A stretch of DNA of 64,000 nt from Candidatus Nomurabacteria bacterium (lineage in GTDB: Bacteria; Patescibacteriota; Saccharimonadia; Saccharimonadales; JAGQNJ01). Shown here one piece after another: positions 4,921-55,019 of the stretch. Where the stretch lies: positions 737,890-801,889 of the forward strand of contig CP060231.1 of NCBI GenBank assembly GCA_023898625.1, in the 5' to 3' direction. Below the pieces are notes generated by a model. That model worked only from the letters and a program-made list of their open reading frames with translations, was not told where the DNA came from and ran no database searches. Position 1 is the first letter of the stretch. Each line of letters opens with the position of its first letter. The position numbers and the translations under genes are program-made.

Positions 4921-5796
4921 TTATAAAATTTGCCCTGCCGAACGTAGCATAATGACCCCTAATGCAATCAAACAGATTACCGCACTATCGAGTAAGGGGT
5001 GTTTTATTATGAACTTCTCTCCCTTTTTTATTTTTTTTCTAAGGCTACTACCATGCGCCCCTGCGAGATACATTACAGACACGCCTATAATCGCTCCTAC
5101 TAAATAGATGCCCCATGTCGATCCAGTGTATTTATTGGCATTTAATACTGACTTACTATCGCCTAAAATATGAGTCTGATTGGATTGAGTACTACTAACT
5201 GAGCCAGGAGGCAACGGATCAGCATACATCGCAACTACTACTGTTGAATGACCACTTTCGTTAAAGTTGTTACTATCAGCAATACCAAAACCTACTTCCG
5301 TAAAATCCTTATCAAGGAGATTGCGCTTATGTGACTCACTTTTCATCCAGCCATCTATTGTTGAGGCGCTGTCATTGAATCCGTATGCTAGATTTTCTCC
5401 AGCTTTTTGGTATTGATAATTTTCATTTGCAATAAACACCCAAGGGTCTTTACCTTCTGGCGTTTTGTGCGACCAGTAGTTTCGGTTAACCATATCCTCT
5501 GCTTTGTTTTGTGCGGCGTTTTGCAGTTGAGGATTAATTGTTAGAGCGTTCTCACCCGTAAGTTGACGTTGTGTATTAGTTGCACTTAGTAACTGCTGGG
5601 GAGTTATGTTTGAGTACGCGCCTAATACGGCTTGGTTGCTTTTTTGGAAAGGACTAAACAATACAATGATTAAAAAACCAATACTTGCAAAAAGCGGAAT
5701 AAATGGGTAGTAATGCTTTAAATATTCTTTGGTGTGACGATGATTTGGTTTTAAGTTATTGTGTTTTTTTGTTTTTGGCGACTTGGCGCGACTCAT
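4921..5796 (-). CDS. CAP/SCP (PR-1-like) domain membrane protein
   Basis: 291 aa. It has a Lys-rich N-terminus plus a TM helix, a CAP-domain core (NYWSHKTPEG...GENLAYGF...WMKSESHKRNLL...VGFGIA) and C-terminal TM helices. Confidence 0.7.
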   Translation of the reverse strand: MSRAKSPKTKKHNNLKPNHRHTKEYLKHYYPFIPLFASIGFLIIVLFSPFQKSNQAVLGAYSNITPQQLLSATNTQRQLTGENALTINPQLQNAAQNKAEDMVNRNYWSHKTPEGKDPWVFIANENYQYQKAGENLAYGFNDSASTIDGWMKSESHKRNLLDKDFTEVGFGIADSNNFNESGHSTVVVAMYADPLPPGSVSSTQSNQTHILGDSKSVLNANKYTGSTWGIYLVGAIIGVSVMYLAGAHGSSLRKKIKKGEKFIIKHPLLDSAVICLIALGVIMLRSAGQIL

Positions 5797-5816: not shown

Positions 5817-6311
5817 TTAAGCTTCTCGCAAGACAAATAGAGCAATAGCAGTAGCTTGGGCTACATTAAAGGACTCTTTTTGACCATACATGGCAATCTC
5901 AACAATATCGTCACATTGGTTTAATAGGTCGTGAGGGATGCCGTCAACTTCAGTGCCAAGTAGCAGGGCACATTTAGTTGGCGGTTGGTAGTCATTTAGT
6001 TTTATGCTATTACTAGACTGCTCTAGTCCAATGATTGTATACCGATCATTTTTTAGCTTTCTTAGTAGTTGCTGGAGGTTATCTTCATAGCTCCAAGAAA
6101 TGGAATTTTCTGCTCCAAGGGCTGTTTTCTTGATTTGATTAGTAAGCTTTTGGCTGATATGTGGCAAACGTTGATCAGAGTCAATGGTAGGGTACGGCGT
6201 AATCCCAGTCAGGTAAAAATGACTAACTCCAAATCCATCTGCAGTACGTAACAAAGATCCAACATTGTGGGTACTTCTAATGTCGTTTGCTATTATTACA
6301 ATGTCACGCAT
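5817..6311 (-). CDS. SpoU/TrmH-family RNA 2'-O-methyltransferase
   Basis: 164 aa with SPOUT motifs (HNVGSLLRTADGFG, LLLGTEVDGIP, SFNVAQATAIALF). Confidence 0.8.
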   Translation of the reverse strand: MRDIVIIANDIRSTHNVGSLLRTADGFGVSHFYLTGITPYPTIDSDQRLPHISQKLTNQIKKTALGAENSISWSYEDNLQQLLRKLKNDRYTIIGLEQSSNSIKLNDYQPPTKCALLLGTEVDGIPHDLLNQCDDIVEIAMYGQKESFNVAQATAIALFVLREA

Positions 6312-6379: not shown

Positions 6380-7984
6380 ATGAGTCAAGATGCTCGATTT
6401 GATGATGAACAGTCAACTTTAAAACGTGCTCGCATATTGGGATTGCCATATATCGATACCTCTCAAATTACCAATAAAATTCTGTATAAGGATGTCTTAT
6501 CCAAAGATGAGCTTTACAGATTACGAATTATCCCTATTCAAGCAGACTCAAATTCAATTACTTTTGGTATCACTAATACAACATCTCAAACTACAATATC
6601 TAGCTTCAAGCAACGATTTTTAGACCAACAAACAAATTTTGCGTTAATTTCTGATAGTGGATACAGAGAATATATGCGTCTATATGATCCTCCACGGAAG
6701 GTAGAATACGAGGATATTAGTATTACTAACGCCGGAACCGAGGATCTTATTCAGAGGGTTTCTCAAATGCTTGAACAGGTACGCGCTGATGACATGTTGG
6801 CTTATCTAGTACATCAAGCTCATAAATTACAGGCATCCGATATTCACACTGAAAACCAGCGAGGATATGTACGGATTCGATTCCGAATCGACGGTGTACT
6901 CCACCCAATAGCAAGAATGACTCCAGAGAAATATCGAATTTTAGTTTCTGCTATTGCTAGCTCGGCAAACTTATCGACCCAGGCGCCAGATGCTCAACAA
7001 GGTCATATTGCCCAAAGAGTTAGGATGGCAGATGGTGCGGATGTGGATGTTAACTTACGAGTCGAAACCGTTCCAACAATCCATGGCATGGATATAGTTA
7101 TGAGGCTGTTTAACTTAAGCCAAGATATGTATAATCTCGATAAATTAGGACTTAATCCCGAGGAAAGAAAAATAGTAGACGATATTATTGCCAAACCAAC
7201 TGGCCTTGTTCTTGTTGTTGGGCCCACCGGCTCTGGAAAAACCACAACTCTTTATTCGATGCTCAATTCCCTTAATAATGATAGCCGAAAGATTATTACT
7301 ATCGAAGATCCGGTTGAGTATCAGTTTGAGGGATTAACTCAGATTCCAGTCAATAGCAAAGGTACACAAGAAGTAAATTTTGCCGAAAAATTGCGGGCTG
7401 TATTACGTCTTGACCCTGATATCGTAATGGTTGGTGAGGTGCGAGATATGGATACTGCTAAAACTGCATTGCAAGCCTCCTTAACAGGTCACCTAGTGCT
7501 ATCTACCTTCCATGCTGGTTCAGCCTCTGCAGCTCTAACTAGACTGGTTGATGTTATTGGCGCTAACCCGTTATTTGCATCTGCAATTCGGTTAGTTATG
7601 GCGCAAAGACTAGTTAGAAAGTTAGACGACAATACTAAACAGGCCTACACGCCTTCTGATAAAGAGAAAGACTATATATCTAGGGCTTTATCAGATTTGC
7701 CTGAAGACTTTGAAAAGCCAAATCTAAGTGCGCTACAACTTTACAAACCAGGTTCGTCTGCAGATAATCCTTATGGCTTTACAGGACAACTCGCCCTAAG
7801 AGAGCAGTTTATTATGACCGGTGAAATTTTAAAATTAATGCAAAACAGTAGCTCTGGCGCAACGACACAACAAATTGAAGAGGCAGCCATAAAGAGTGGC
7901 ATGAAGACAATGCGTCATGACGCAATTCTTAAGGTTTGTGCGGGGCAAACTACGCTTGACGAAGTGATTCGTGTGCTTGGTTAA
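6380..7984 (+). CDS. pilB: GspE/PilB-family type II/IV secretion (type IV pilus assembly) ATPase
   Basis: 534 aa. It has an N-terminal T2SSE_N-like region, Walker A GPTGSGKTT, an Asp box, Walker B (IVMVGEVRD) and a His box (LVLSTFHAG). Confidence 0.85.
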   Translation: MSQDARFDDEQSTLKRARILGLPYIDTSQITNKILYKDVLSKDELYRLRIIPIQADSNSITFGITNTTSQTTISSFKQRFLDQQTNFALISDSGYREYMRLYDPPRKVEYEDISITNAGTEDLIQRVSQMLEQVRADDMLAYLVHQAHKLQASDIHTENQRGYVRIRFRIDGVLHPIARMTPEKYRILVSAIASSANLSTQAPDAQQGHIAQRVRMADGADVDVNLRVETVPTIHGMDIVMRLFNLSQDMYNLDKLGLNPEERKIVDDIIAKPTGLVLVVGPTGSGKTTTLYSMLNSLNNDSRKIITIEDPVEYQFEGLTQIPVNSKGTQEVNFAEKLRAVLRLDPDIVMVGEVRDMDTAKTALQASLTGHLVLSTFHAGSASAALTRLVDVIGANPLFASAIRLVMAQRLVRKLDDNTKQAYTPSDKEKDYISRALSDLPEDFEKPNLSALQLYKPGSSADNPYGFTGQLALREQFIMTGEILKLMQNSSSGATTQQIEEAAIKSGMKTMRHDAILKVCAGQTTLDEVIRVLG

Positions 7985-9114
7985 ACAATAACCTTGGCAA
8001 TTTCTGGCACTAACCGTTTATCAAGAACTGATGGAATAATTTCGTCAGGTGTTGGGTTTTCAACCAGACCGGCAATTGTTTTAGCTACAGCAAGCTTATG
8101 CTCGTCTGTAATTTTTTGTACTTTATTATCTAGTGCTCCCCGAAAAATACCAGGGAAAGCTAGGGCATTGTTGACTTGATTAGGGAAGTCACTTCGTCCA
8201 GTAGCGACAACTGATGCCCCGGCAGATTTAGCCTCGTCTGGCATAATTTCTGGGGTTGGATTAGCCATTGCAAAAATAATCGGATCGTTGGCCATGGTTT
8301 TTATATGTTCAGCGCTTAGTAAGCCACCTTTGGATACGCCAATAAATATATCAGCATTTTTTAGTGCATCCTCTAAGCTTCCGTTAACATTATTTTTGTT
8401 AGTAAATTCAAGCAGTTTTTTCTTTTCGTCATTAAGGTCGGTACGCTCTTTGCTGATGATACCTTTGCTGTCTACGGCTAAAATTTCGGGGTTGGCGTAT
8501 AATTTAATAAGTTTAATTATTGCCGTACCAGCTGCGCCCGCTCCTACAACAACGATACGTGAGTTATCTAAATTTTTGTTGGTGATTTTAATAGCGTTTA
8601 TCAGTCCTGCAAGTACTACAATTGCTGTACCGTGTTGATCATCATGAAAAACCGGGATAGATAGTTCCGTTTTTAGTCTATCTTCTACCTCAAAGCAAAG
8701 TGGGGCAGAAATATCTTCAAGATTAATTCCGCCAAAGCTAGGGGCAATTGCTTTAACTGTGGCGACTATCTCGTCTGCCGAGTGAACATCCAAAACAATT
8801 GGCAGAGCATCAATGTTTGCAAAATGCTTAAACAACATAGCCTTGCCCTCCATAACTGGTAGAGCGCCCTCGGGGCCAATATTGCCAAGCCCTAAAACAG
8901 CCGAACCGTCACTAACTACAGCCACTGTATTATTAGTCCATGTATATTCAGCTGTCTGTTCTGGATGGAGGGCAAGATGGCTACTTACCGCTCCTACTCC
9001 AGGGGTGTAGTATGTACTAAGTTGATCTTTAGTATCTAAACCATCTTTAAGTTCGATTGAAATCTTACCCTTTAGTTGTTTGTGTAGTTGCAGTGCTTTT
9101 TCTGAATAGTCCAT
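7981..9114 (-). CDS. NAD(P)-dependent malic enzyme (short form)
   Basis: 377 aa. Matches include YTPGVG, VVSDGSAVLGLGNIGP, FGGINLEDI and the Rossmann motif VVGAGAAG, all typical of short malic enzymes. Confidence 0.85.
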   Translation of the reverse strand: MDYSEKALQLHKQLKGKISIELKDGLDTKDQLSTYYTPGVGAVSSHLALHPEQTAEYTWTNNTVAVVSDGSAVLGLGNIGPEGALPVMEGKAMLFKHFANIDALPIVLDVHSADEIVATVKAIAPSFGGINLEDISAPLCFEVEDRLKTELSIPVFHDDQHGTAIVVLAGLINAIKITNKNLDNSRIVVVGAGAAGTAIIKLIKLYANPEILAVDSKGIISKERTDLNDEKKKLLEFTNKNNVNGSLEDALKNADIFIGVSKGGLLSAEHIKTMANDPIIFAMANPTPEIMPDEAKSAGASVVATGRSDFPNQVNNALAFPGIFRGALDNKVQKITDEHKLAVAKTIAGLVENPTPDEIIPSVLDKRLVPEIAKVIV

Positions 9115-9276: not shown

Positions 9277-11193
9277 ATGTCAGAAAATCATTTATCTCGC
9301 CAAGGTGCTCAATTCCTCCATCAGCAATACAGTACACTACATCAATCAGACCCAGTCAATCAAGAACAAATAAGAAGAGCTAGAAGACTAAGCCATGATC
9401 TAGAGGATTCCTTTCTACCAGAAGATATAACTGAGTCTGAAGCTGTAAGTACTATTCCAGCTCACGAACTAGATTCAGAAGTACACACCAAGCCTATAGA
9501 TAAAATAGATGACTGGATGAAAGTACTAGAACGTACTCATCAAGGTCATCGTGATGACCCAAGAGTACTAGAACGTATTAAGAATAGTTACCATAGACAA
9601 TATGTTATCAAGCCAGAGCAAGTTCCAGAGTCTGCCTTTGCACTAGAAGCTCAAATAGCCAGGAATATGGGTTATGGTGATATACCAATAACCGATGAGT
9701 TCAGACAAGCTAAAACAAAAGAAATTATCTCTAACCAAGAAGAAAGCCTAGATCGTTGGGTAGACTATCTTTCCAGTCCTGATGCTGTCTACCCAATGTG
9801 GCTTAAGTACTGGGCATTTACTAGCATTACTAAAATGGGCAAACTAGAAAAGAACACAACAACTGATGAACATGGAGTAGAACACGAAACAACTCGCTTT
9901 GCTAGACGAACAGAAGATACTGTATCTCCATTCCCACCACTCAACCCCAGAGCTCTAGCTTTAACCCTTTCAGCTATTGAAGCTAAGGCTAGCCAAAGAG
10001 GAATACCTAAGAAAGAAAGACAGCCAATCGACAATACTAGTACTAAGCTAAACGACAGTGACTTTGCTCAACTAGTATCTTCTGAAAGCTTCTCTAAGTT
10101 GTATGCTCAGTTCTTATCTGAACTACCAGCCTATTCAACTGAAGGACTTAGAGAAACCAGAGGACAATGGGTTAAGTATGATCAAGGTAGTGATGCCCAA
10201 CCCTTAGTAGATAGCCTAGAAGGTCACCCCCTAGAGTGGTGCACAGCAGGTATAGAAACTGCCAGGAATCAACTATCTACAGGTGACTTCTATGTTTACT
10301 ATTCTATTGACCAAGACGGTAACCCAACAATACCTAGAGTAGCTATTAGGATGCAAGATAGCTCTATAGCCGAAGTAAGAGGCATAGCCCCCGACCAAGA
10401 AATAGATCCATTCATTGCTGATGTGGTAAGCGAAAAGATGCAAGAATTCCCAGACGGTGAACAATACCAAAAGAAAGCTAGCGATATGAAGCGACTCACC
10501 GAAATCGATGAACGTAAGGCCGGTGGTAGTGAACTAACAACAGAGGACCTAAGATTCCTCTACGAAATAGACAATCCAATTAATGGCTTTGGCTATGAAA
10601 AAGACCCAAGAATCGAACAACTACTACAAGACAGAGACACTCGCATGGATCTTTCTAACATTCTAGGTGTACCACCACAACAAATTAGCTTAACCCAAGA
10701 AGAAGCCCTTAGTGGAACACCAGAACAACCAATCGTTTACCATTATGGAAACCTTGATCTATCTAGCCTGACCAGCGCCGAAGGACTAACTTTGCCAAGT
10801 AGTATTAGTGGAAACCTTGATCTCTATAACCTAACCAACGCCGAAGGACTAACTTTGACAAACAGTGTTGGTGGAGACCTTATTCTCTCTAACCTGACCA
10901 GCGCCGAAGGACTAACCTTGCCAAATAGTGTTGGTGGAGGTCTTTATCTCTATAACCTAACCAGCGCCGAAGGACTAACTCTGCCAAACAGTATTGGTGA
11001 AGACCTTATTCTCTCTAACCTGACCAGCGCCGAAGGACTAACTCTGCCAAACAATATTGGTGGAGGTCTTAATCTCTCTGGCCTGACCAGCGCCGAAGGA
11101 CTAACCTTGCCAAATAGTATTGGTGGAGACGTCTATTTGTACAATCTAGCTAGCACTGAAAAGAAGCTCTCCGCCAAGCCAGACCAGACCTAA
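9277..11193 (+). CDS. Hypothetical protein: N-terminal PcfJ-like region plus a C-terminal array of 21-residue leucine-rich repeats
   Basis: 638 aa with no signal peptide. The segment LEGHPLEWCTAGIETARNQLSTGDFYVYYS...PRVAIRM...IAEVRGI resembles the PcfJ-like domain pattern, recalled from memory. The C-terminus has about 6.5 copies of LTSAEGLTLPNSIGGDLxLxN. Confidence 0.5.
   Translation: MSENHLSRQGAQFLHQQYSTLHQSDPVNQEQIRRARRLSHDLEDSFLPEDITESEAVSTIPAHELDSEVHTKPIDKIDDWMKVLERTHQGHRDDPRVLERIKNSYHRQYVIKPEQVPESAFALEAQIARNMGYGDIPITDEFRQAKTKEIISNQEESLDRWVDYLSSPDAVYPMWLKYWAFTSITKMGKLEKNTTTDEHGVEHETTRFARRTEDTVSPFPPLNPRALALTLSAIEAKASQRGIPKKERQPIDNTSTKLNDSDFAQLVSSESFSKLYAQFLSELPAYSTEGLRETRGQWVKYDQGSDAQPLVDSLEGHPLEWCTAGIETARNQLSTGDFYVYYSIDQDGNPTIPRVAIRMQDSSIAEVRGIAPDQEIDPFIADVVSEKMQEFPDGEQYQKKASDMKRLTEIDERKAGGSELTTEDLRFLYEIDNPINGFGYEKDPRIEQLLQDRDTRMDLSNILGVPPQQISLTQEEALSGTPEQPIVYHYGNLDLSSLTSAEGLTLPSSISGNLDLYNLTNAEGLTLTNSVGGDLILSNLTSAEGLTLPNSVGGGLYLYNLTSAEGLTLPNSIGEDLILSNLTSAEGLTLPNNIGGGLNLSGLTSAEGLTLPNSIGGDVYLYNLASTEKKLSAKPDQT
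10747..11160 (+). repeat. In-frame tandem repeat, 63-bp period, about 6.5 copies
   Basis: The core ACCAGCGCCGAAGGACTAAC recurs at 10771, 10834, 10897, 10960, 11023 and 11086, exactly 63 bp apart, with very few substitutions. Confidence 0.9.
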
Positions 11194-15415: not shown

Positions 15416-16570
15416 ATGGATTTAGATGTAAAACAAATGGCTATAGCACTAAGAGCTATCGCAGAAGAGAAGAACTTGCCAGAAGAGACAGTGCAAGAAA
15501 TAGTCGAACAAGCACTCGCGGCTGCTTACAAAAAAGATTACGGGGACAGAGAGCAAGAAGTAAGAGTTAGTGTAAATTTACACACAGGTGATGTTGATGC
15601 ATACGTCACTAAAACCGTTGTCGATAAAGTAGAAGATGAGCAAACCGAAATTTCATTGACCAAGGCTCAAGCTATTCGCAAGAATATTGCAGTTGGCGAC
15701 ACACTAGAGCTACATCAAGATGTTTCAACATTTGGACGAGTCGCAGCTCAGACAGCCAAACAAGTTATATTACAGCGTTTACGTGAAGCTGAAAGAGAAA
15801 TTATTGTCAACGAATATCAAGACAAAATTGGAACAATCCTTAATGGTATTGTGGCCAGGATAGAGGGTCGTTTGATTCGTGTTGATCTTGGAAAGGCACA
15901 AGGAATTTTACCAGCAAGTGAGCAGATTCAAGGTGAACACTACTATCCAGGGCAAAGATTAAAAGTATTCTTAAAAGACGTAGAACGTGGCTTAAGAGGG
16001 CCACAGCTAGTTTTGTCACGGGGAAATAGTGAATTTATTGAATGGTTGTTCAGGGCAGAGGTTCCAGAAATGGAAAGCGGTGCTGTTGAAATTAAGGGTA
16101 TTGCTAGAGAGGCAGGGGTTCGCAGTAAAATCGCAGTTTCAAGTACTGTTCAAGGTGTAGATCCGGTAGGAACATTTGTTGGTGGTCATGGAACTCGTGT
16201 AAATGCTGTGATGAGTGAAGTTGGCGAGCAAGAAAAAATTGATATTGTTATTTGGGACGATTCCACGAAAGAGTATATTATTAATGCATTAAGTCCAACA
16301 AAGGTCAGTAGTGTAGATATTGACGAGGGACGCAAAAAAGCTACAGTAAAGGTGCCCGAAGATCAGTTAAGTATTGCAATTGGTAAAAGTGGTCAAAATG
16401 TTAGACTTGCTAGTAAACTTACTGGTTATGAAATCGACATCGTAGGAACAAAGGAAGAGCAGAAGGAAATCAAAGAAGAGCCCAAACAACCACCAAAGTT
16501 AAAGAAGAAAAGTGAACTCGAGAGTAGTTTACTAGAGGCAATAGAAGAACACGGCGAAGAAAGTAATTAG
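15416..16570 (+). CDS. nusA: Transcription termination/antitermination factor NusA
   Basis: It contains S1 and two KH domains (IGKSGQNVRLASKLTG). I chose the start at ATG 15416 (MDLDVKQ...), which is preceded by AAGAAAGG. The ORF-track start at 15350 lies inside the -10 box and spans the leader hairpin. Confidence 0.9.
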   Translation: MDLDVKQMAIALRAIAEEKNLPEETVQEIVEQALAAAYKKDYGDREQEVRVSVNLHTGDVDAYVTKTVVDKVEDEQTEISLTKAQAIRKNIAVGDTLELHQDVSTFGRVAAQTAKQVILQRLREAEREIIVNEYQDKIGTILNGIVARIEGRLIRVDLGKAQGILPASEQIQGEHYYPGQRLKVFLKDVERGLRGPQLVLSRGNSEFIEWLFRAEVPEMESGAVEIKGIAREAGVRSKIAVSSTVQGVDPVGTFVGGHGTRVNAVMSEVGEQEKIDIVIWDDSTKEYIINALSPTKVSSVDIDEGRKKATVKVPEDQLSIAIGKSGQNVRLASKLTGYEIDIVGTKEEQKEIKEEPKQPPKLKKKSELESSLLEAIEEHGEESN

Positions 16571-16593
16571 CACTCTTGACTTGCGAGTGCTAA
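16567..16593 (+). promoter_or_regulatory. CIRCE element (HrcA operator consensus) overlapping the clpC promoter
   Basis: TTAGCACTC-TTGACTTGC-GAGTGCTAA is an exact match to TTAGCACTC-N9-GAGTGCTAA. TTGACT in the spacer lies 18 nt upstream of TATACT (16600-16605). Confidence 0.8.
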
Positions 16594-16656
16594 TTTAGTT
16601 ATACTAAAAACAGCGATTTTGCGCTACATATAATTTAACGAGGGTATAACTAAAAA

Positions 16657-19134
16657 ATGCCACCAAATTCATCTGATTTTCAAGAGATCCTGAATCATTT
16701 AACCGAAAATGCTCTGCGAAGCTTACAGCAAGCTGACGGTATTGCTCGTGCTTCAGGTAGTCCGTATGTTGGAACACAGCATATTCTTTTGGGTATATTG
16801 GCACAAGAAGCATCTATCGGCGCAAAAATGTTACAAGATAGCGGAGTAACACTCGATAGGGCTAGACTTGCCTTAAATCTGACACCAAAAGCCACTGTCA
16901 TAAATATGGGCGCCAAAGGTTTGAGCGAAACAGCAAAGCTGACATTAAAAATGGCTTACGAAACAGCTCAGGATTACAGCCAAGAGTTTTGTGGTACAGA
17001 GCATATTCTTTATAGTATCCTAAGCCAGAAGAACTCTAGAGCAACTGTTTTGCTTCGAGATATGAATACAAATGTCGATAACTTAATAAATGGCCTGGAA
17101 CAATTTTTGAATAGGCAACAATATGAAGATTCAGCAAATCCGAGTGGAGGACGTGTACGTACAAAGCAAAGGCGAAAGACTGCACTCGATTTTTTCGGGA
17201 CAGATCTTACTCGGTTAGCAAAACAAGGGAAGCTAGACCCAGTGATTGGGCGCGAAGCACAGATTAGGCGAGTCATTACAATTTTAAACCGACGAACAAA
17301 AAATAACCCAGTATTAATTGGCGAACCTGGCGTAGGAAAGACTGCTATAGTAGAAGGCTTAGCTCAGAGAATTGTTAATGAGGATGTGCCGGATACCTTG
17401 CTAGACAAGCGAATTGTTATGTTGGATTTGACAAGTATGATTGCCGGAACAAAATATAGAGGTGAATTTGAAGAACGCTTAAAAAAGGTCATGCAAGAAC
17501 TCGAAAATGATAAAAAAACGATTATCTTTATTGATGAGGTACACTTGATTGTAGGGGCGGGTTCGGCAGAAGGCTCACTTGATGCCGGCAATATATTAAA
17601 GCCAGCTCTTGCTCGAGGCAAAGTTCAGGTTATCGGTGCAACAACCACAGATGAATATACTAAGTATATTGAAAAGGACAGTGCTTTAGAGAGGCGATTT
17701 CAACCGGTACAGGTTCCGCAAACTAATCTTTCAGAAACTGTAGCGATATTAAAGGGGCTACGTAAGCACTATGAATCTTTTCATAATGTAAAGATTCCTG
17801 ATGAAGTTATAGAAGATACTGTTAATCTGGCAGATCGATATATAAATGACAGGTTTATGCCAGACAAAGCTATTGATCTACTTGATGAAACTGCAGCACA
17901 TCTGCGAATAGACAAAGGCAGAACACCACCAGAGGTGCGACGCTTAAAAAATGAACTTAAACTTGTGAATTCTAAAATTGATGATGCCGTAGATAATGAG
18001 GATTACGAAAAGGCGGCGCAGTTTAAGCAACGTGTTAGCCAAATTGACGATGAGTTAAAGAAGTTGCAATCAGCATCAAAAAGCGTTAATGAGCTTACAA
18101 TGACAAGCGATGACGTTGCTGAGATTGTGGCACGAATAACAGGTGTTCCTGTGCAAAAAGTAATTAGGTCAGAAGCTAAATATTTGCTCAATCTAGAAAG
18201 TAATTTATCGCGTTTTGTAATTGGTCAAGAAGAAGCAGTTCATGCTGTTTCTAGGGCTGTACGACGAAACCGATCGGGTGTAAGCAGTGCCAAGCGTCCC
18301 ATTGGATCTTTTGTATTCTTGGGTCCTACTGGGGTTGGCAAGACCGAACTTGCTAGGGTATTGGCTCGAGAGTTTTTTGGCTCAGAATCTGCTTTAGTAA
18401 AAATCGACATGAGCGAGTTTGGCGAACATCATAATGTATCTCGTTTAGTGGGAGCCCCGGCTGGATATGTAGGGTACGATGATGGAGGTCAATTGACAGA
18501 CAAGATACGTCGTCAACCGTACAGTGTGGTTTTGTTTGACGAGATCGAGAAAGCTCACCCCGATGTATTGAATATGTTATTGCAACTACTTGAAGATGGG
18601 CATTTGACAGACTCAAAAGGCCGTAAGATTGATTTTACAAATACTATTGTGATAATGACTAGTAACATCGGTGCTGACAAACTCCAAAAAGAAGTTTCTC
18701 TAGGTTTTGATGCAAATAGCAAGATTGATTTAAGTGATTTAGACAAACTCCATGAATCAAACAAGGATAAAGTTCTTGATCAGCTTAAGAAGATGATGCG
18801 CCCAGAGTTACTAAATCGTATCGATAAGATTATTGTATTTAGGGCTTTAACAAAAAACAATATTTCCAAAATATTAGATTTACAAGTGAACGAGCTCAAG
18901 AATCGTCTAGCAAAACAGGGCATAAGCGTAAAACTAACTACATCTGCTCGAAATTATTTATTAAATCATGGTTATGATTCACTAAACGGCGTAAGGCCAA
19001 TGCGCAGACTTTTACAAGATACTCTTGAGGATCATATCGCTGTAGAGTTGATTAAGGGTTCATACGACAAAGGGTCGATAGTTGAGGTCGGCACCAAGAA
19101 TCGTGAACTAGCATATTCTGTAATATCTGAATAG
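16657..19134 (+). CDS. clpC: ATP-dependent Clp protease ATP-binding subunit ClpC
   Basis: 825 aa. It has a double Clp_N repeat, two AAA+ modules (GEPGVGKT and GPTGVGKT), a short UVR-type middle domain ([13 protein letters not shown]) and an LGF loop. Confidence 0.9.
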
Positions 19135-35351: not shown

Positions 35352-35419
35352 CCAAAAATACTTTTGATTGAAGTAAATGCTCTGGACTGAAATAGGATTT
35401 GATGATACAGTTAGTCACT

Positions 35420-36703
35420 ATGCAGATTAAAAGAAATGACATATCATCAACGAAAATAAAACTAATTATTAGTGCTGACGACGATGAAATATCAAAACTT
35501 AAAGATAAGATTCTGACTAAATTTCAGGTAAAAAGCAAGATTCCTGGCTTTCGTCAGGGTAAAGCACCTCTTTCGGTAGTAGAAAAGCATGTTGAAAGCT
35601 CCGCTCTTCAGGCTGAATTCATCGATGAGGCAATAAATTCGTTATACATAGGTGCTATTAATCAGGAAAAGATTAAGCCATTTGGTTCCCCAAAGATTTC
35701 GTTATCAAAATTCGTGCCATTCACTACTTTAGAGTTTGAAGCTGAAGCTGATACGCTTGGCAAAGTTAAGCTAACCGATTATAAAAAAATAAAAAAACAG
35801 CCTGTGAAGGCGAAAGTAACTGCTGAAGATGTTAATGAAGTAATTGATAGTCTAAGGACTAGGTCTGCTACAAAGAAAGAAGTAACTCGCGCTTCAAAAG
35901 AATCTGACGAGGTTATAATTGATTTTAGGGGTGTTGACAGCAAGAAGCAACCAATACAAGGAGCAGACGGGAAAGATTACGCACTTACATTAGGTAGTAA
36001 GGCATTTATTCCAGGATTTGAGGATAATCTCATTGGCCTAAAGCCAAAGCAGGAGAAAACATTTGATTTGAAGTTCCCTAAAGATTACGGAGTTAAGGAT
36101 CTGTCTAGCAAAAAAGTAACCTTTACAGTAAACATTAATCAGATTAACGAGATAACTAAACCAAAATTAGACGCTGAGTTTGCTGGCAAAATTGGGCCAT
36201 TCAAAACCGTTGCTGAAATGAAAGAAGATATCAAAAAACACCTCTTAGCTGAAAAACAAAAGCAGGAAGATCAAAAGCTAGAGAACGAAATTGTCCTTGA
36301 AGTTGTTGATAAAAGTGAGGTTGATTTGCCGGATGTTTTGGTTGCAGAGCAAATCGAACGATTAAAGACAGAAGTAAGGCAAAATCTAACTTATCGAGGT
36401 CAGACTTGGCAAGAAATGCTCGAGGAAGAAGGATCTAGTGAGGAGCAGTTTATTGATAAACAACTGCGACCTGAAGCCGAGAGAAGAGTTAAAACTGGGT
36501 TAGTATTATCTGAAATTTCAGTTAAAGAGAATCTAGATGTAACTAAAAATGAGCTAGATACCAGGATGCAAGAATTAAAAGATCAATATAGTGATCAAGC
36601 TATGCAGGCAGAGCTTGCAAAGCCAGAAGCCAGGCAAGAAATTGCATCGCGAATGATTACAGAAAAAACAGTTAAAAAGCTAGTTGAAATTGCTACAAAA
36701 TAA
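35420..36703 (+). CDS. tig: Trigger factor
   Basis: It has a ribosome-binding N-terminus (GFRQGKAP), a central FKBP-type PPIase and a C-terminal arm domain. I chose the start at ATG 35420. Confidence 0.88.
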   Translation: MQIKRNDISSTKIKLIISADDDEISKLKDKILTKFQVKSKIPGFRQGKAPLSVVEKHVESSALQAEFIDEAINSLYIGAINQEKIKPFGSPKISLSKFVPFTTLEFEAEADTLGKVKLTDYKKIKKQPVKAKVTAEDVNEVIDSLRTRSATKKEVTRASKESDEVIIDFRGVDSKKQPIQGADGKDYALTLGSKAFIPGFEDNLIGLKPKQEKTFDLKFPKDYGVKDLSSKKVTFTVNINQINEITKPKLDAEFAGKIGPFKTVAEMKEDIKKHLLAEKQKQEDQKLENEIVLEVVDKSEVDLPDVLVAEQIERLKTEVRQNLTYRGQTWQEMLEEEGSSEEQFIDKQLRPEAERRVKTGLVLSEISVKENLDVTKNELDTRMQELKDQYSDQAMQAELAKPEARQEIASRMITEKTVKKLVEIATK

Positions 36704-36721
36704 TTTTACGATGATTATAAA

Positions 36722-36748
36722 TTAGCACTCTTGACTATTGAGTGCCAA
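36722..36748 (+). promoter_or_regulatory. CIRCE element overlapping the clpP promoter
   Basis: TTAGCACTC-TTGACTATT-GAGTGCCAA matches the consensus at 17 of 18 arm positions. TTGACT in the spacer lies 18 nt upstream of TATACT (36755-36760). Confidence 0.75.
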
Positions 36749-36769
36749 GTTCTGTATACTAGATACTAT

Positions 36770-37381
36770 ATGAATATCAAATCTACAAAATCTATTAAAG
36801 ATTCCGTGCTAGTGCCAACAGTTATTGAATCAGAGGGTCGTATGGAGCGCGCCTTTGATATATATTCTAGGCTGTTAAAAGATCGGATTATATTTTTAGG
36901 TACGGACGTTAATGAGCATACTTCAAACTTGATTGTTGCTCAGATGCTGTTCCTTGAAAACGAAGACCCAAAAAAAGATATTAAGTTTTACATCAATAGT
37001 CCTGGCGGCAGCGTGTATGATGCCTTGGCAATCTATGACACAATGCAATACGTTAAATGTGATGTTCAAACAGTTGGTATTGGTGTTCAGGCTAGTGCTG
37101 CAGCCTTTTTGCTGAGTTCAGGGGCAAAAGGCAAGAGGTTTTTGTTACCACATTCTACTGTGATGATACATCAACCATCAGCTGGCACCCGAGGTAAGGT
37201 TACGGATATGGAGATTGACCTCAAGGAAGGCCTTAGACTAAAACAACTATTGAATCAGATCATGGCCAAAAATACTGGTCAGACAGTTAAGAAAATTGCT
37301 CAAGATGCGGAACGTGATTTCTGGATGGACGCACAAGAAGCCAAACAATACGGTCTTGTCGACAAAATACTAACAACCTAA
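36770..37381 (+). CDS. clpP: ATP-dependent Clp protease proteolytic subunit
   Basis: ClpP core (LVPTVIE...[19 protein letters not shown], catalytic GxQASAA and IHQP). I chose ATG 36770. The ORF-track TTG start at 36731 lies inside the CIRCE spacer/-35 box. Confidence 0.9.
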
Positions 37382-37567: not shown

Positions 37568-40279
37568 ATGAAAAAGATACTAAATAAACTATCTATAACA
37601 AACAAAGTAAAAATTATAAACTATCTAGTACTATCCCTACTATTCACTATAACTACCCTTATACCATTAACTACCAGCACAGCCAATGCTACCCCACCAG
37701 ACTCTTGTTTTAGTTTTAACTCTGGTACTAATACCATAGAAGACTACTACGATAACGAAAACAACGACTCAGGCCAACCAGCTTGTCCTAAGGCTGTAGA
37801 TATACCTAGTACTATTGGAGGCAATGCAGTCACCACCATCGGCAACTCTGCATTTTATTCCAACCAACTCACCTCCGTCACCATCCCTAGCTCGGTAACC
37901 ACCATCAGCAACTATGCTTTCCAATACAACCAACTCACCTCAGTCACCATCCCGGGCTCTGTCACTACCATCGGTGACTATGCCTTTTATTCCAACCAAC
38001 TCACCTCCATCACCATTCCTAGCTCAGTTACCTCCATCGGCGACTATGCATTCCAAGGCAACCAACTAACCTCCGTCACCATAGCAGGCAATCCCACAAC
38101 CCTCGGTACAAGGATACTTGAATATAACCCCATAACCTCAATCTCATACAATGGCACAGCCTATACCGATACCAGTACACTTGGTGAACAATGTTTTGAC
38201 TTTGATTCCGGTACAGGCACTATAAACGACTACATATTTGCAGATCTAAACCTAATTAAAAGCAGTAGCATTGCTTGTCTAGACAGAAGCGTAGATATAC
38301 CAAGCGCTATAGGTGGGGTTGGTGTCGAGCATATAGGTGCGGTTGCATTCTGTCAAAAAAGTCTGACCAGTGTGGTACTTCCAGCGTCACTACTAACTAT
38401 AGAGAATGGTGGCTGGGGCTGTGGCGGTGCTTTCCGAGACAACCAACTCACCTCCATCACCATCCCTAGCTCAGTTACCACCATCAGCAACTCTGCTTTC
38501 TATGGTAACAAACTCACCTCCGTCACTATTCCTAGCTCGGTCACCACCATCGGCGACTATGCTTTTTCTAACAACCAACTCACCTCCGTCACCATCCCTA
38601 GCTCAGTCACCACCATCGGCGACTATGCTTTTTCTAACAACCAACTCACCTCCGTCACCATCCCTAGCTCAGTCACCACTATCGGCGACCATGCTTTTTC
38701 TTACAACCAACTCACCTCCATGTCTATTCTCGGAAGCCCCACCACACTAGGTAGCGGTATATTAATATCTAACCCCATAGAATCTATTACCATAAATGGT
38801 AATACCTACACTAGTTCATCACCTAATACTGATGCTTGCTTTGAATTTGATACAGGTAATGGCACCATTAATGGATGGCTCCAAGCAGACTTAACCACGG
38901 CTAGAGATGGAGGCTCTGCTTGTCTTAACAAATCAGTCACTATCCCTAACACTATTGGTGGTACATCAGTAACCACTATCGATAGCGGTGCTTTTTCTTC
39001 CAACCAACTCACCTCCATCACCATCCCTAGCTCAGTCGCCACCATCGGTAGCGAGGCTTTTTTTTTCAACCAACTCACCTCCGTCACTATTGGTAATGGG
39101 GTGGCTTCGTTAGATCCTTCTGTGTTTGCGTTCAATTCAGACTATACATTTGCAGATTTTGAGCTAGAAATGCAACAACTGGAGCAACAACACAAAGCTA
39201 CTTGGGCAGACCCTAACAACCCAACACCTGCCGAACAACAAGCTGCTGTGCAAGAAATGTATCTCCTTTACTACAAATTCTACACCTCTGCCTGGTATGT
39301 CCAGGTGTATACAGCTGACCCATCTAACCCTAATAACTTGCAAGATGCTTCTACTTCTATGACCGAAGCAGATACTTTTGAAGTTGATGTAAACGGTAAC
39401 GGCAACACTACTGACCCAGTCTTTTTTGGCGGTCACCTCATCAACCCAGCCTACGCTCAAATCAACTATCAGGATCAATCAGGTAACACCATCTCCCCCT
39501 CTACCAAAGTAACAGGCTATAACACAGACAACAGCACCAACCTAACAACCTACCTAGCTAAAGACAACCCTACCAGTAATATGAGCTTCTACCACAAAGT
39601 AGGTAGTACCGCTCATCTACCTACTCCCCCAAGTATTGCAGGCTACAGTATAGTATCTACTCCTCCTAGTACCCTAACCCTAAATAACACAGGAGCTAAC
39701 GAAATAACCTATACCTACAAAATAGACACTAACTCTGACTCCGACTCCGATGGCATCCCTGACTCCGTAGAGACTAATGCCCCCAACTCTGGTGATGCTA
39801 ACAATGACGGTATAGCCGATAGTACCCAAGCTAACGTAACTAGCTATCTAAACCCAGTAACTAATAACTATGTAGTACTCCAAACATCTAGTGCATGTAG
39901 TATTACTACCACTACTACAACTAGTGAAGATAGCCTATCTACTAAAGACTCTGGCTATGACTACCCAGTAGGCCTAACTAACTTCACTACTGACTGTAAT
40001 ACCCCAGGCTTTACAGCTACTATAAACCTCTACTACTACAACCTAGCTAGTAATAACTATGTTCTCAGAAAACATAACCCTAACAATAACTCTTTCCTTA
40101 CTATAGCTAACCCTACACTAACTAACCTAACTATAGACAATAAACCAGTAACCAAAGTAACCTACCAAGTTACTGACGGACAACAACTAGACATAGACAA
40201 CACCACTAACGGAACCATAGTAGACCCAGTAGGCCTAGCTACATTAGCTGTAGGGAGTCCTAATACGGGGTTGAGATAA
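37568..40279 (+). CDS. Secreted BspA-type leucine-rich-repeat surface protein with TSP3-like Ca-binding repeats
   Basis: 903 aa with a signal peptide. It has three super-repeats, each starting CFxF(D/N)xGTxTI...AC...V(D/T)IPxxIGG and followed by 22-aa LRR_5-type units (QLTSVTIPSSVTTIGDYAFxxN). Next come DSDSDGIPD...DANNDGIAD and a beta-rich C-terminal domain. Confidence 0.8.
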   Translation: MKKILNKLSITNKVKIINYLVLSLLFTITTLIPLTTSTANATPPDSCFSFNSGTNTIEDYYDNENNDSGQPACPKAVDIPSTIGGNAVTTIGNSAFYSNQLTSVTIPSSVTTISNYAFQYNQLTSVTIPGSVTTIGDYAFYSNQLTSITIPSSVTSIGDYAFQGNQLTSVTIAGNPTTLGTRILEYNPITSISYNGTAYTDTSTLGEQCFDFDSGTGTINDYIFADLNLIKSSSIACLDRSVDIPSAIGGVGVEHIGAVAFCQKSLTSVVLPASLLTIENGGWGCGGAFRDNQLTSITIPSSVTTISNSAFYGNKLTSVTIPSSVTTIGDYAFSNNQLTSVTIPSSVTTIGDYAFSNNQLTSVTIPSSVTTIGDHAFSYNQLTSMSILGSPTTLGSGILISNPIESITINGNTYTSSSPNTDACFEFDTGNGTINGWLQADLTTARDGGSACLNKSVTIPNTIGGTSVTTIDSGAFSSNQLTSITIPSSVATIGSEAFFFNQLTSVTIGNGVASLDPSVFAFNSDYTFADFELEMQQLEQQHKATWADPNNPTPAEQQAAVQEMYLLYYKFYTSAWYVQVYTADPSNPNNLQDASTSMTEADTFEVDVNGNGNTTDPVFFGGHLINPAYAQINYQDQSGNTISPSTKVTGYNTDNSTNLTTYLAKDNPTSNMSFYHKVGSTAHLPTPPSIAGYSIVSTPPSTLTLNNTGANEITYTYKIDTNSDSDSDGIPDSVETNAPNSGDANNDGIADSTQANVTSYLNPVTNNYVVLQTSSACSITTTTTTSEDSLSTKDSGYDYPVGLTNFTTDCNTPGFTATINLYYYNLASNNYVLRKHNPNNNSFLTIANPTLTNLTIDNKPVTKVTYQVTDGQQLDIDNTTNGTIVDPVGLATLAVGSPNTGLR
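38444..38707 (+). repeat. In-frame tandem repeat, 4 x 66 bp, units 2-4 nearly identical
   Basis: Units start at 38444, 38510, 38576 and 38642. Units 3 and 4 differ at only about 3-4 positions. Confidence 0.9.
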
Positions 40280-51622: not shown

Positions 51623-52714
51623 ATGCAACAGATATATACTGAATCATTCTTGAGGGGTTATGCTCGTAAGACTATGAGATCTATACAAGACATAACCCAA
51701 CACCCATATAAACATGTAATTGAGCAAAGACTCAAGATAATTCAGTTCTATGATGATTTCGGGGAACAAGCCACCAGACAAGCTTTTAGCGTAAGTAGGA
51801 GCACTGTGTTCAGCTGGAAGAGGCGTCTAAAGGATAACAATGGCTCACTCAGATGTTTAGCTCCAAAGAGCACTGCACCAAAACACAAACGCAAGCGAAT
51901 GGTAGATATGCGTATTACTAACTTTATTCTAGAACAAAGAAGCTTACACCCTAAGCTAAGTAAAGATAAGCTAGCCGTATTACTCAAAGATGAGTGTACA
52001 GCTTGGAATCTAAAACCACCTTCGGCATCTACCGTAGGTAGAATCCTCAAAGACCTTAAGTTTCAAGGCCTATTACCAAAATATACCAGGTTAACCGTTT
52101 CAGGTGCTACCGGCAAACTACTTGAGAAACAAAGTCGTAAGCCAAGACTCAATAAACAACGCAGGAATGGTTATCAGCCTGAGCAACCAGGAGATATGCT
52201 ACAGATAGACACTATTGTTAAGTTTATAAACGGTATACGCCGTTATGTACTTACAGCAGTAGATTACAAAGGTAGATTCGGCTTTGCCTATGGCTATACT
52301 AGCCCCAGTAGTACCAACGCAGCAGACTTCCTGAACAAACTGCAAGCTGTTACCCCATTTGAGATCAGACGAGTGCATCATGACAATGGTAGTGAGTTCT
52401 ACAAACACTTCATAAGAGCCTGTGATGAACGAAACATTGAACAGCTCTGGAACTATCCCAAAAGACCTAAGAATAACGGAATGGTTGAAAGATTTAACCG
52501 TAGCATCCAAGAAGAGTTTATAGACTGGAACCTAGATAATCTAGCCTATGACCTTGAGGATTTCAATAATTCATTGATGGACTGGTGTATATGGTATAAC
52601 ACAAAAAGACCACATTATGGACTTGGTTTAAAAAGTCCAATGCAGTACTTACTAGAAGTGTTACAATTAAGCCAACAGGAGTCCAGAATGTTATGGACGG
52701 ATACAACTACTTGA
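51623..52714 (+). CDS. DDE-type (integrase core, rve) transposase, IS481-family-like
   Basis: 363 aa with an N-terminal HTH (STVFSWKRRL). The catalytic region runs LQIDT... HHDNGSEF ... NGMVERFNRSIQEEF ... YNTKRPHYGLGLKSP. Confidence 0.85.
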   Translation: MQQIYTESFLRGYARKTMRSIQDITQHPYKHVIEQRLKIIQFYDDFGEQATRQAFSVSRSTVFSWKRRLKDNNGSLRCLAPKSTAPKHKRKRMVDMRITNFILEQRSLHPKLSKDKLAVLLKDECTAWNLKPPSASTVGRILKDLKFQGLLPKYTRLTVSGATGKLLEKQSRKPRLNKQRRNGYQPEQPGDMLQIDTIVKFINGIRRYVLTAVDYKGRFGFAYGYTSPSSTNAADFLNKLQAVTPFEIRRVHHDNGSEFYKHFIRACDERNIEQLWNYPKRPKNNGMVERFNRSIQEEFIDWNLDNLAYDLEDFNNSLMDWCIWYNTKRPHYGLGLKSPMQYLLEVLQLSQQESRMLWTDTTT

Positions 52715-53429: not shown

Positions 53430-55019
53430 ATGAAATCGAACCCTGAGCTTATTGATGAGGTTTTTGAGTATGTATCCCCAATAGCAGTTGCTTACGGTGG
53501 TGATATATCATCTGTCATGTCTTCACTGGCTTTAACTAAGTCGATTCTTCAAACCGCTCATCCAGACAGAGGTTTTGAATATTCTGATTCATTGGTTAAT
53601 GCAAATAGGCTATATTCGTCAATTAAAGACTCAAACAAAGTACAACACGAGATTCTAACAGAATGTACCGAAGACACAGTGGAGCCTCTCGGTAAGTTAC
53701 GAAAAGCGGATGTTTTGAACCAAAATATTGATGTATTGATTGAGTCAATAACTAAAGAAACCAGACAAGATACACATGACGTATCTGATACTTCTCACTA
53801 CATTGTCCCAAGTGATGTTGATATAGACGAAGACAGTAGTGATCATGATCTTTCCTTTTTACTGAACACAAAGATTATCGATCAGTTAAAAGAACTAGAT
53901 GGTGAGGATCTTAATTTTGTGATTAAACAATTAAGGAAATATACTTTAAAAAATCAAAATTTAGAAATTCCGGATATATCTAGTAGTCAATGGTCAGTAC
54001 TATTTGATAGAATTCAAAATGGTGATGTTTCATGGGAATCTCTAAATAAGTCGAATGGAGAGGTCGCTAGCGTGCATCTTAAAAACGCAGAAGATCGAGT
54101 GTTACCTTTTTTGAGTTTATTTAGTCCAGAATCAAGCTATATTTTCCCAAAAAACTGGTATAGGTCCTTCAGTGGTTTGGTATATGCCCCCATGTTTGAT
54201 ATTTATGATTACGAGGATCACCAAACAAGAATTGCGCGTAATAAAAAATCATATTGGCAAAACTTTAAAATCTTAAATGTACAGAATGGCATTGTTGTAG
54301 ATGAAAGACAAATAGATTACGGGGACAGAGAGTCAATTCAACTTGTAGATGGTTTGCCAACAAAGAAGCACCGATCGATAATGGAATTAGTTAATGATGT
54401 GCTAAAGGAGATAGGTAGCGACGATAGCTTTTTGGTCACAAATTCTGAAAACGGAGACCAAATCGGTCCTGCAAATTTTGTATTTTTTGTCAAAAATCAA
54501 ATAGCTACGGTAGTCGGTACTGACTTGCAACATGCTAAACACACCATAAATAACAAGATACAGCGTGAGGATGTGGCTATTGATGACGGAGTATATATGA
54601 TTAAGGCTGGTAAACCACAAGGTGCTACTGAATATGATAAACAAAACTTACCTCTCGCTCTGATAAAATTAAAAGAGATGAAAATTCCAAAACGAAATAG
54701 CTACAAGGGTTTCGCTCTGGTAGGTGAGTGCTCATATGTTCTTGATGCTAATGACGATGTTTCAACAATGATACGCAATAACCAGATTATGGATGTATGT
54801 TTAGATCAGAAACCTGACACCGAACAAATTAACGGAAGGCAGAGAATAGAAGTTATGTTAAAAATCTTGTTACAGGATTCAATATCTAAAGTAACTCAAA
54901 GCTTATTAATGAAACGTGATTATATGAAGGTAAGTAGAATGTTGGCGGTTAATAAGGATAATCAGATGATCAATATTAATGAGCTTGACCCATATAGGCT
55001 TACGTTTATTAGCGAGTAA
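53430..55019 (+). CDS. Hypothetical protein (529 aa)
   Basis: A long uninterrupted ORF on the same strand with codon usage like the core genes. I saw no Walker, HExxH, DxD or other motif. Confidence 0.6.
   Translation: MKSNPELIDEVFEYVSPIAVAYGGDISSVMSSLALTKSILQTAHPDRGFEYSDSLVNANRLYSSIKDSNKVQHEILTECTEDTVEPLGKLRKADVLNQNIDVLIESITKETRQDTHDVSDTSHYIVPSDVDIDEDSSDHDLSFLLNTKIIDQLKELDGEDLNFVIKQLRKYTLKNQNLEIPDISSSQWSVLFDRIQNGDVSWESLNKSNGEVASVHLKNAEDRVLPFLSLFSPESSYIFPKNWYRSFSGLVYAPMFDIYDYEDHQTRIARNKKSYWQNFKILNVQNGIVVDERQIDYGDRESIQLVDGLPTKKHRSIMELVNDVLKEIGSDDSFLVTNSENGDQIGPANFVFFVKNQIATVVGTDLQHAKHTINNKIQREDVAIDDGVYMIKAGKPQGATEYDKQNLPLALIKLKEMKIPKRNSYKGFALVGECSYVLDANDDVSTMIRNNQIMDVCLDQKPDTEQINGRQRIEVMLKILLQDSISKVTQSLLMKRDYMKVSRMLAVNKDNQMININELDPYRLTFISE

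Follow-up and report, generated by a model that had tools for sequence, protein, structure and literature searches.

HrcA and its operator CIRCE, for which the consensus is TTAGCACTC-N9-GAGTGCTAA, have been described together with their mechanism (PMC3842655). The class I regulon of Bacillus subtilis and other bacteria, made up of groESL and hrcA-grpE-dnaK-dnaJ, carries the same operator sequence that is found in the present study (PMC3842655). In the Mollicutes Mycoplasma gallisepticum and Spiroplasma melliferum, HrcA is the one recognisable heat-shock regulator, and CIRCEs precede the AAA+ protease/unfoldase genes clpB and lon in addition to dnaK (PMC5138195, PMC4245973). According to Chastanet and Msadek (2003), as cited in PMC3842655, clpP of Streptococcus salivarius is dually regulated by CtsR and HrcA. 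In the literature searched, no paper on HrcA or CIRCE in Saccharibacteria/Patescibacteria was found. Gene regulation in the Candidate Phyla Radiation is almost wholly uncharted, and the site described here, at clpP of a Saccharibacterium (Patescibacteria/CPR), provides an entry point to it. The genome of this organism measures ~1 Mb. The window, by which is meant the whole stretch of 64 kb of DNA that was analysed, has a G+C content of 40%. Judged from the sequence, and with a probability of about 0.72, the element in front of clpP would be an HrcA-repressed, effectively leaderless composite operator/promoter of the HrcA-CIRCE heat-shock system, with a twin that controls clpC.

The clpP coding sequence lies on the plus strand (36770-37381) and encodes a protein of 203 aa (Pfam CLP_protease, 1.6e-77), which scores 298.7 bits against NCBIfam PRK00277 with residues 11-202 matched. 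On its 5' side and on the same strand lies tig, coding for trigger factor (35399-36703; Pfam Trigger_N, FKBP_C and Trigger_C), and the stop codon of tig is located 18 nt before an inverted repeat of the CIRCE type, which would serve clpP as its HrcA operator (36722-36748, no strand being assigned to the repeat). It reads TTAGCACTC-TTGACTATT-GAGTGCCAA, with the left arm at 36722-36730, a spacer of exactly 9 bp at 36731-36739 and the right arm at 36740-36748, and agrees with the consensus at 17/18 arm positions. The one mismatch is a T-to-C change at 36746 in the right arm, which recurs in relatives and is therefore probably tolerated. The promoter scan placed the -35 hexamer TTGACT (36731-36736, plus strand) within the CIRCE spacer and the -10 hexamer TATACT (36755-36760, plus strand) 18 nt past it. 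The operator thus surrounds the -35 of a TTGACT-18-TATACT promoter that lies immediately upstream of a proteostasis gene. The -10 is followed by the nine bases AGATACTAT and then by the ATG of clpP (36770-36772), and this stretch of the plus strand (36761-36772) is devoid of a Shine-Dalgarno sequence.

A perfect CIRCE, TTAGCACTC-TTGACTTGC-GAGTGCTAA, is present at clpC (16567-16593, again with no strand assigned); it matches 18/18 arm positions and has a 9-bp spacer. The promoter scan found at this site TTGACT (16576-16581), a distance of 18 nt and TATACT (16600-16605), so that the TTGACT-18-TATACT promoter of clpC (16576-16605, plus strand) is identical to that of clpP. The clpC gene (16657-19134, plus strand) encodes a ClpC-type AAA+ protein of 825 aa with Clp_N, UVR and two AAA domains (Pfam) and with an LGF ClpP-docking loop at residues 682-684. 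Its leader is 51 nt long and contains GAGGG at 16640-16644. The gene upstream is nusA, whose stop codon TAG (16568-16570) falls inside the left arm of the CIRCE. These two sites are the CIRCE matches (<=3 mismatches) of the 64-kb window, each of them directly in front of a Clp gene. A preliminary description of this DNA had claimed a CIRCE with one arm mismatch at clpP and the same promoter as at clpC, with TTGACT in the spacer 18 nt from TATACT; both claims were borne out, the latter at 36731-36760 and at 16576-16605.

Conservation was followed in ClpP relatives that were fetched from metagenomes by protein similarity alone, blind to the motif. The product of 203 aa is encoded in identical form in GCA_046350715.1 and in many metagenome contigs, the DNA of which is 99.2-99.97% identical to the window. 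Eight such loci (L001-L008, 99.2-99.97% identical overall) have a promoter identical to that of the window and are for this reason uninformative on conservation. It was found that every relative with at least 71% ClpP identity and with upstream DNA carries a CIRCE (0-3 mismatches), located 60-200 nt before the conserved PTVIE, and two relatives at 66% ClpP identity have one as well. No CIRCE was present at clpP of relatives at 68-70% identity (L151-L162); this control is therefore not universal in the phylum. The arms were compared in 25 metagenomic clpP loci with a CIRCE (ClpP 66-82% identical) together with the window, all aligned on the repeat. Across these 26 orthologous promoters the arms are nearly invariant, with an information content of 1.83 bits per position as against 0.18 in the 5' flank, 0.41 in the spacer and 0.37 in the 3' flank. 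The -35 lies inside the 9-bp spacer in all 26, in a variable register: TTGAC occurs at offset 9, 10, 11, 12 or 13, that is, at the beginning of the spacer (the register of the window), at its end (TTAGCACTC-nnnnTTGAC-GAGTGCTAA) and in between. The -10 of the clpP relatives follows in every case 16-18 nt after the -35. Among the composite promoters of relatives in general, the -35/-10 spacing is 17 or 18 nt in 126/137, and TATACT is the commonest -10 (32/137). Variation in the arms is non-compensatory, as in TTAGCACTC...GAGTGCCAA (the window) and TTGGCACTC...GAGTGCTAA, which fits a protein-binding site and not an RNA stem. The preliminary description had named a lack of conservation in relatives as the result that would speak against the element; the motif proved to be conserved, with 25 metagenomic loci at 0-3 mismatches and the -35 in the spacer.

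The ATG at 36770 is preferred as the predicted start codon of clpP. It lies 9 nt downstream of the -10 hexamer, and GGAG, GAGG and AGGA are all absent from the 20 nt upstream of it. The distance from the -10 to the first in-frame ATG was surveyed in 36 clpP promoters with the composite architecture, and the distribution was bimodal. The ATG is found 5-11 nt after the -10 in 23/36, with a mode of 6-7 nt and a value of 9 nt in the window; none of the 36 falls at 12-16 nt, and 11 fall at 17-44 nt, typically behind a Shine-Dalgarno sequence of GGAG type. One further relative has a leader of 114 nt, and in another (L076) one ATG lies 3 nt after the -10 and a second, behind a Shine-Dalgarno sequence, 27 nt after it. 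The distances are likewise bimodal at hrcA, where the ATG lies 6-10 nt after the -10 in 21/33 composite promoters. At clpC, where the bimodality is partial, the short distance occurs in 10/31, and at dnaK and hsp20 leaders are always present. Relatives of clpP that have no CIRCE likewise show TATAAT 6-9 nt before the clpP ATG. Within the window, a -10-like hexamer ends 5-10 nt upstream of 20/50 ORF starts, compared with 15.7% of control ATGs (p=3e-5), and leaderless starts therefore seem to be a general habit of this genome. The ribosomal-protein genes in the window carry strong AAGGAGG sites. Transcription of clpP may thus begin with the A of ATG 36770 or 1-3 nt upstream of that base; since the gap of 9 nt is among the longer ones in the 5-11 nt range, a leader of 1-3 nt has the same likelihood as a true +1 AUG. 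The clpP mRNA is apparently leaderless or nearly so. It should be noted here that this had been proposed beforehand from the short distance of 9 nt between the -10 and ATG 36770. The distance itself is confirmed in the sequence, and the proposal gains support from the bimodal distances (23/36 at 5-11 nt) and from the enrichment at the genes of the window. The TTG start at 36731 given in the list of open reading frames had been taken for the -35 box, and rightly so: TTG is the first codon of the hexamer. As a start of clpP this TTG was rejected, for it has no Shine-Dalgarno sequence and the frame upstream of the ATG is not conserved, because the register of the -35 shifts between relatives.

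The least improbable alternative accepts the operator and the promoter as real and places the start of translation at an internal GTG (36806; M-LVPTVIE...), in which case the leader would be ~40 nt and the N-terminal extension would not be made. This is unlikely, even if it has some evidence in its favour. From ATG 36770 the protein carries an extension of 11-12 residues before the conserved VLVPTVIE; the ClpP family profiles match only from residues 11-14, and several relatives begin directly at MSVLIPTVIE. On the other hand, inspection of the bases before the GTG, AAAGATTCC, revealed no Shine-Dalgarno sequence, and the frame is open from ATG 36770 onward. In the closest relative (L017, a Saccharibacteria MAG with 93% ClpP identity) the protein begins with a comparable extension, MNKQSLKST..., read from an ATG behind a Shine-Dalgarno sequence (AGAGGA), and this supports translation of the extension in the window from ATG 36770. 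In addition, the relatives with extensions of 3-14 residues all start at an ATG 5-11 nt past the -10, and the gene callers behind the public annotations give the identical product of 203 aa on the 23 contigs examined. The extension could conceivably be cleaved off later, as happens to the propeptide of E. coli ClpP.

It could also be that clpP is mainly read through from tig, that TTGACT and TATACT do not form a working promoter, and that the CIRCE serves only as a roadblock, or else forms an RNA hairpin with an effect on transcript stability or termination. Adjacency of tig and clpP is common in bacteria. The tig gene ends 18 nt upstream of the repeat on the same strand, a scan of the window found no terminator-like site between the two genes, and the repeat is able to fold into a hairpin (-5.1 kcal/mol as DNA, z=-2.3). 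However, this hairpin is weak and has no T-run after it, the variation in its arms does not preserve pairing, and a terminator or RNA hairpin as the main function of the clpP repeat was rejected on these grounds. Moreover, the -35/-10 spacing stays at 16-18 nt in every relative despite the shifts of the -35 register, and the ATG keeps to 5-11 nt from the -10, a relation that makes sense only if transcription starts there. Read-through from tig may add to the expression of clpP, but it leaves the conserved geometry of -35, -10 and ATG unexplained, and as the principal account it is quite improbable.

The identity of the regulator was approached through the genes that lie behind the same operator. 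A scan for TTAGCACTCTTGACNNNNGAGTGC, a CIRCE with TTGAC in the spacer, in one genome per GTDB species gave at least 120 loci; of the 120 listed, 84 are from Saccharibacteria/Patescibacteria by record title, and the others include Chloroflexi, cyanobacteria, Streptococcus and Clostridia. Among the matches listed, the downstream gene codes for a ClpC/ClpB-like protein in 30, HrcA in 27, DnaK in 27, ClpP in 11, Hsp20 in 7, Zn-ribbon genes (in Chloroflexi) in 3, GroEL in 2 and GroES in 1. The composite operator precedes hrcA in about 30 Patescibacteria loci; the repressor gene therefore has the same operator, which amounts to classical autoregulation. One locus (L209) shows hrcA-grpE-dnaK synteny with composite CIRCEs, most dnaK promoters of the relatives have a second CIRCE within the 5' UTR, and in one Saccharibacteria MAG the CIRCE of groES-groEL occupies the classical position, immediately past the -10. 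In related Saccharibacteria/Patescibacteria the same operator is thus found at hrcA, dnaK, groES, hsp20 and clpC. As the composite precedes hrcA, dnaK, clpC, hsp20 and clpB-like genes, the link of the clpP operator to HrcA is well founded.

The HrcA of this lineage is unusual in size. Search of the 64-kb window by tblastn with HrcA, DnaK, GroEL and Hsp20 seeds found nothing. A profile search returned HrcA homologues of the lineage, with at least 8000 clusters of a short form; none among the 120 HrcA clusters listed belongs to the contig of GCA_046350715.1 that encodes the identical ClpP. In the lineage, hrcA occurs on contigs of about 1 Mb (P0069 and P0072), and we infer from the lineage that HrcA is present in this genome. 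The short form has 231-245 aa, or ~234 as against ~340 aa, ~100 residues below the characterised HrcA proteins, so that it may differ from them in dimerisation and in its dependence on GroEL. It matches the winged helix of Thermotoga maritima HrcA (1STZ residues 16-99, E=2.7e-23) and scores 183-185 bits against TIGR00331, just under the cutoff of 197.2, over profile positions 1-123 and the C-terminal part. With a canonical streptococcal HrcA it aligns at residues 1-74 and 185-232 only. An AlphaFold2 model of the short HrcA, built with 34 closely related sequences, reached a pLDDT of 43.5, too poor for a fold search.

Clp genes are under CtsR in Firmicutes and under ClgR in Actinobacteria, and the repeat could in principle be bound by a lineage-specific Clp regulator analogous to these and not by HrcA. 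That hrcA is not found within the 64-kb window and that the lineage HrcA stays just below the NCBIfam equivalog cutoff would agree with such a regulator. Against it, the arms match the CIRCE consensus at 17/18 positions at clpP and at 18/18 at clpC, and in the phylum the motif also stands before hrcA, dnaK and groES, the set of genes known as the classical, autoregulated HrcA regulon; a different regulator is hence a very remote prospect. Control of clpP of the CtsR type is not supported either, as the CtsR operator RGTCAAA-NAN-RGTCAAA has 0 matches in the window (<=2 mismatches, both strands). The idea that the consensus is matched by chance, for which nothing speaks except that the motif is short, is excluded by the 0.04 CIRCE sites expected per window from dinucleotide shuffles (at least 2 sites in 0/100 shuffles) against the 2 observed, both at Clp promoters (an argument against chance already made in the preliminary description), and by the arms being kept in 26/26 orthologous clpP promoters.

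Our data hence point to the HrcA-CIRCE reading. From the DNA sequence we infer that HrcA binds at clpP and represses it, that heat induces the gene, where its transcription begins and that its translation is leaderless. In unstressed cells, an HrcA dimer would sit on the two 9-bp arms and bracket the -35, the right arm taking up the upstream half of the -35/-10 spacer. By covering the -35 and this half of the spacer, the repressor would keep sigma-70 RNA polymerase out. A build-up of unfolded proteins would render HrcA inactive, in the studied bacteria by way of the titration of GroEL/ES. Transcription would then begin about 6-9 nt past TATACT, either on the first base of ATG 36770 or 1-3 nt ahead of it, and the leaderless or near-leaderless clpP mRNA would be translated without a Shine-Dalgarno sequence. 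Lying upstream of this predicted start, the operator would be absent from the clpP mRNA that originates here. In this way ClpP and its partner ClpC could be co-induced with the chaperones.

A broader reading is more doubtful, and we put it forward only tentatively: throughout Saccharibacteria and the wider Patescibacteria, a minimal HrcA of ~234 aa, without ~100 central residues, might serve as the single global proteostasis repressor of the chaperones and of ClpCP, acting on a module of ~50 bp in which the -35 lies in the operator spacer and the start codon is the transcription start. If true, all control would be exerted at transcription initiation, without a 5' UTR, in a heat-shock circuit of distinct design shared across the phylum, and the truncated repressor could possibly have an altered, perhaps GroEL-independent, way of sensing. 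The site at clpP and its relatives give a concrete, testable regulon for these ultrasmall epibionts, comprising hrcA, dnaK, groESL, hsp20, clpB-like genes, clpC and clpP. Saccharibacteria are described as now genetically manipulable in a report on the group (PMC10633639). The defined promoter architecture (-35, spacer of 17-18 nt, -10 and an ATG 6-9 nt later) could aid the annotation of gene starts and the design of expression tools.

It remains to compare the locus with the known systems. The CtsR regulon of Firmicutes and the ClgR regulon of Actinobacteria bring about coordinated stress induction of unlinked clpP and clpC genes, the same functional outcome as the one proposed here. However, the regulators and operators are unrelated, and the heptad direct repeat of CtsR is absent from the window. 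As in Bacillus, hrcA of the lineage is autoregulated and linked to grpE-dnaK, and groES-groEL of a Saccharibacterium has a CIRCE right after the -10. Unlike in Bacillus, the targets in the window are clpP and clpC and not the chaperonin genes, and the clpP operator has the -35 at its centre, the hexamer being in the spacer, instead of lying in the stretch from transcription start to start codon; it would therefore not be transcribed and could not act as an mRNA element. The clpP transcript is moreover apparently leaderless, and the HrcA of the lineage has ~234 aa and not ~340. The Mollicutes resemble the present organism in their reduced genomes, and two CIRCE copies are present at some of their promoters (PMC5138195, PMC4245973), as at dnaK of Saccharibacteria. 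They belong to another phylum, their targets are clpB and lon whereas here they are clpP and clpC, and the same two papers report neither a -35 inside the spacer nor a leaderless start (PMC5138195, PMC4245973). A CIRCE in front of clpP has a precedent in S. salivarius; in the account cited in PMC3842655, CtsR is the main regulator there and the CIRCE an additional one, whereas here no CtsR box is present and the CIRCE is apparently the sole operator. With the leaderless mRNAs of Actinobacteria, Deinococcus-Thermus and archaea, clpP shares a -10 (TANNNT) a few nt before the ATG, the lack of a Shine-Dalgarno sequence and the recurrence of this arrangement genome-wide (see, for instance, the GeneMarkS-2 paper cited in PMC7441243); the gap of 9 nt at clpP is slightly long in comparison. 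In the literature searched, no report of leaderless genes in Saccharibacteria/Patescibacteria and nothing specific on a CIRCE spanning the -35 was found. That the system occurs in Saccharibacteria/Patescibacteria and takes in both clpC and clpP, that the -35 is consistently placed in the spacer, that this is coupled to leaderless starts and that HrcA is short all appear to be undescribed in that literature. Set beside these systems, the clpP element is real and conserved and belongs to a familiar type of regulatory site, found here at a target that is less common but has precedents, and its biology extends a textbook pair of repressor and operator without requiring a new mechanism.

A hexamer resembling a -10 box and ending 5-10 nt before the start, without a Shine-Dalgarno sequence, was found at 20 of the 50 ORFs of the window (40%), while 15.7% of control ATGs have the same -10 geometry (p=3e-5). 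Starts of this type are exemplified by 4921-5796, 5817-6311 and 7981-9114 on the minus strand, and by those at 9277, 20150, 25715, 26538, 30228 and 34044. Given this enrichment, leaderless genes, as predicted from sequence, appear to be common in the Saccharibacterium of the window. The operon-internal ribosomal-protein genes (window 58-64 kb) carry strong AAGGAGG sites.

In a clade of metagenome clpP relatives (L151-L162, 68-70% identity), in which the N-terminus of ClpP reads ...NYLVPTVIE, CIRCE is absent from clpP, and TATAAT is still present 6-9 nt before the ATG. The putative control of clpP by HrcA has thus either disappeared from this clade or never arose in it, and the predicted leaderless start was retained. 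At clpC, the stop codon TAG of nusA falls within the left arm TTAGCACTC of the CIRCE (window 16567-16570), so that the operator overlaps the 3' end of nusA.

Immediately 3' of clpP lies the gene for a 903-aa protein with repeated 'NQLTSVTIPSSVTTIGDYAF' leucine-rich units of LRR_5 type (window 37568-40279). The window also contains an rve-family integrase of an IS element (51623-52714) and two large ORFs with no Pfam match, of 638 aa (9277-11193) and 529 aa (53430-55019).

The HrcA of Saccharibacteria and Patescibacteria is 231-245 aa long (hrcA of the related loci L064, L065, L089, L108, L124 and L209; proteins P0001-P0120) as against about 340 aa in characterised bacteria. Canonical HrcA aligns to the short form through the N-terminal winged helix and the C-terminal ~50 residues, and about 100 central residues are absent; the missing segment may be the inserted dimerising domain of the T. 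maritima structure 1STZ. The short proteins score 183-185 bits against the NCBIfam profile TIGR00331, slightly below its cutoff of 197.2, and hence bear only the NCBI name 'transcriptional regulator'. The AlphaFold model of short HrcA is poor (pLDDT 43.5).

An unexpected predicted target of CIRCE is found in three Chloroflexi genomes (L026, L027, L039), where a CIRCE with TTGAC in its spacer lies upstream of a gene that encodes a small protein of the Zn_ribbon_8 (FmdB) type.

At the dnaK promoters of Saccharibacteria, CIRCE occurs twice (L011, L013, L018, L019, L022, L031, L037, L043, L044, L209:7696-7785 and others): one copy lies around the -35 and the other, often more degenerate, in the 5' UTR, beginning a few nt past the -10; none of the dnaK promoters examined has leaderless geometry. 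Upstream of the dnaK promoter region of L209, a partial CIRCE-like sequence, TTAGCACTCTTGACAGGGGTGTCAAGAG (7462-7495), in which the left arm is intact and the right half differs, may be a decayed operator. Before the saccharibacterial groES-groEL of L058 (reverse strand, around position 1604), TTGACG-17-TATACT is followed by a CIRCE, CTAGCACTC-N9-GAGTGCTAA, which begins 5 nt past the -10, and then by the Shine-Dalgarno sequence AAAGGAGG. This order of promoter and operator is the classical arrangement, from which the clp genes differ.
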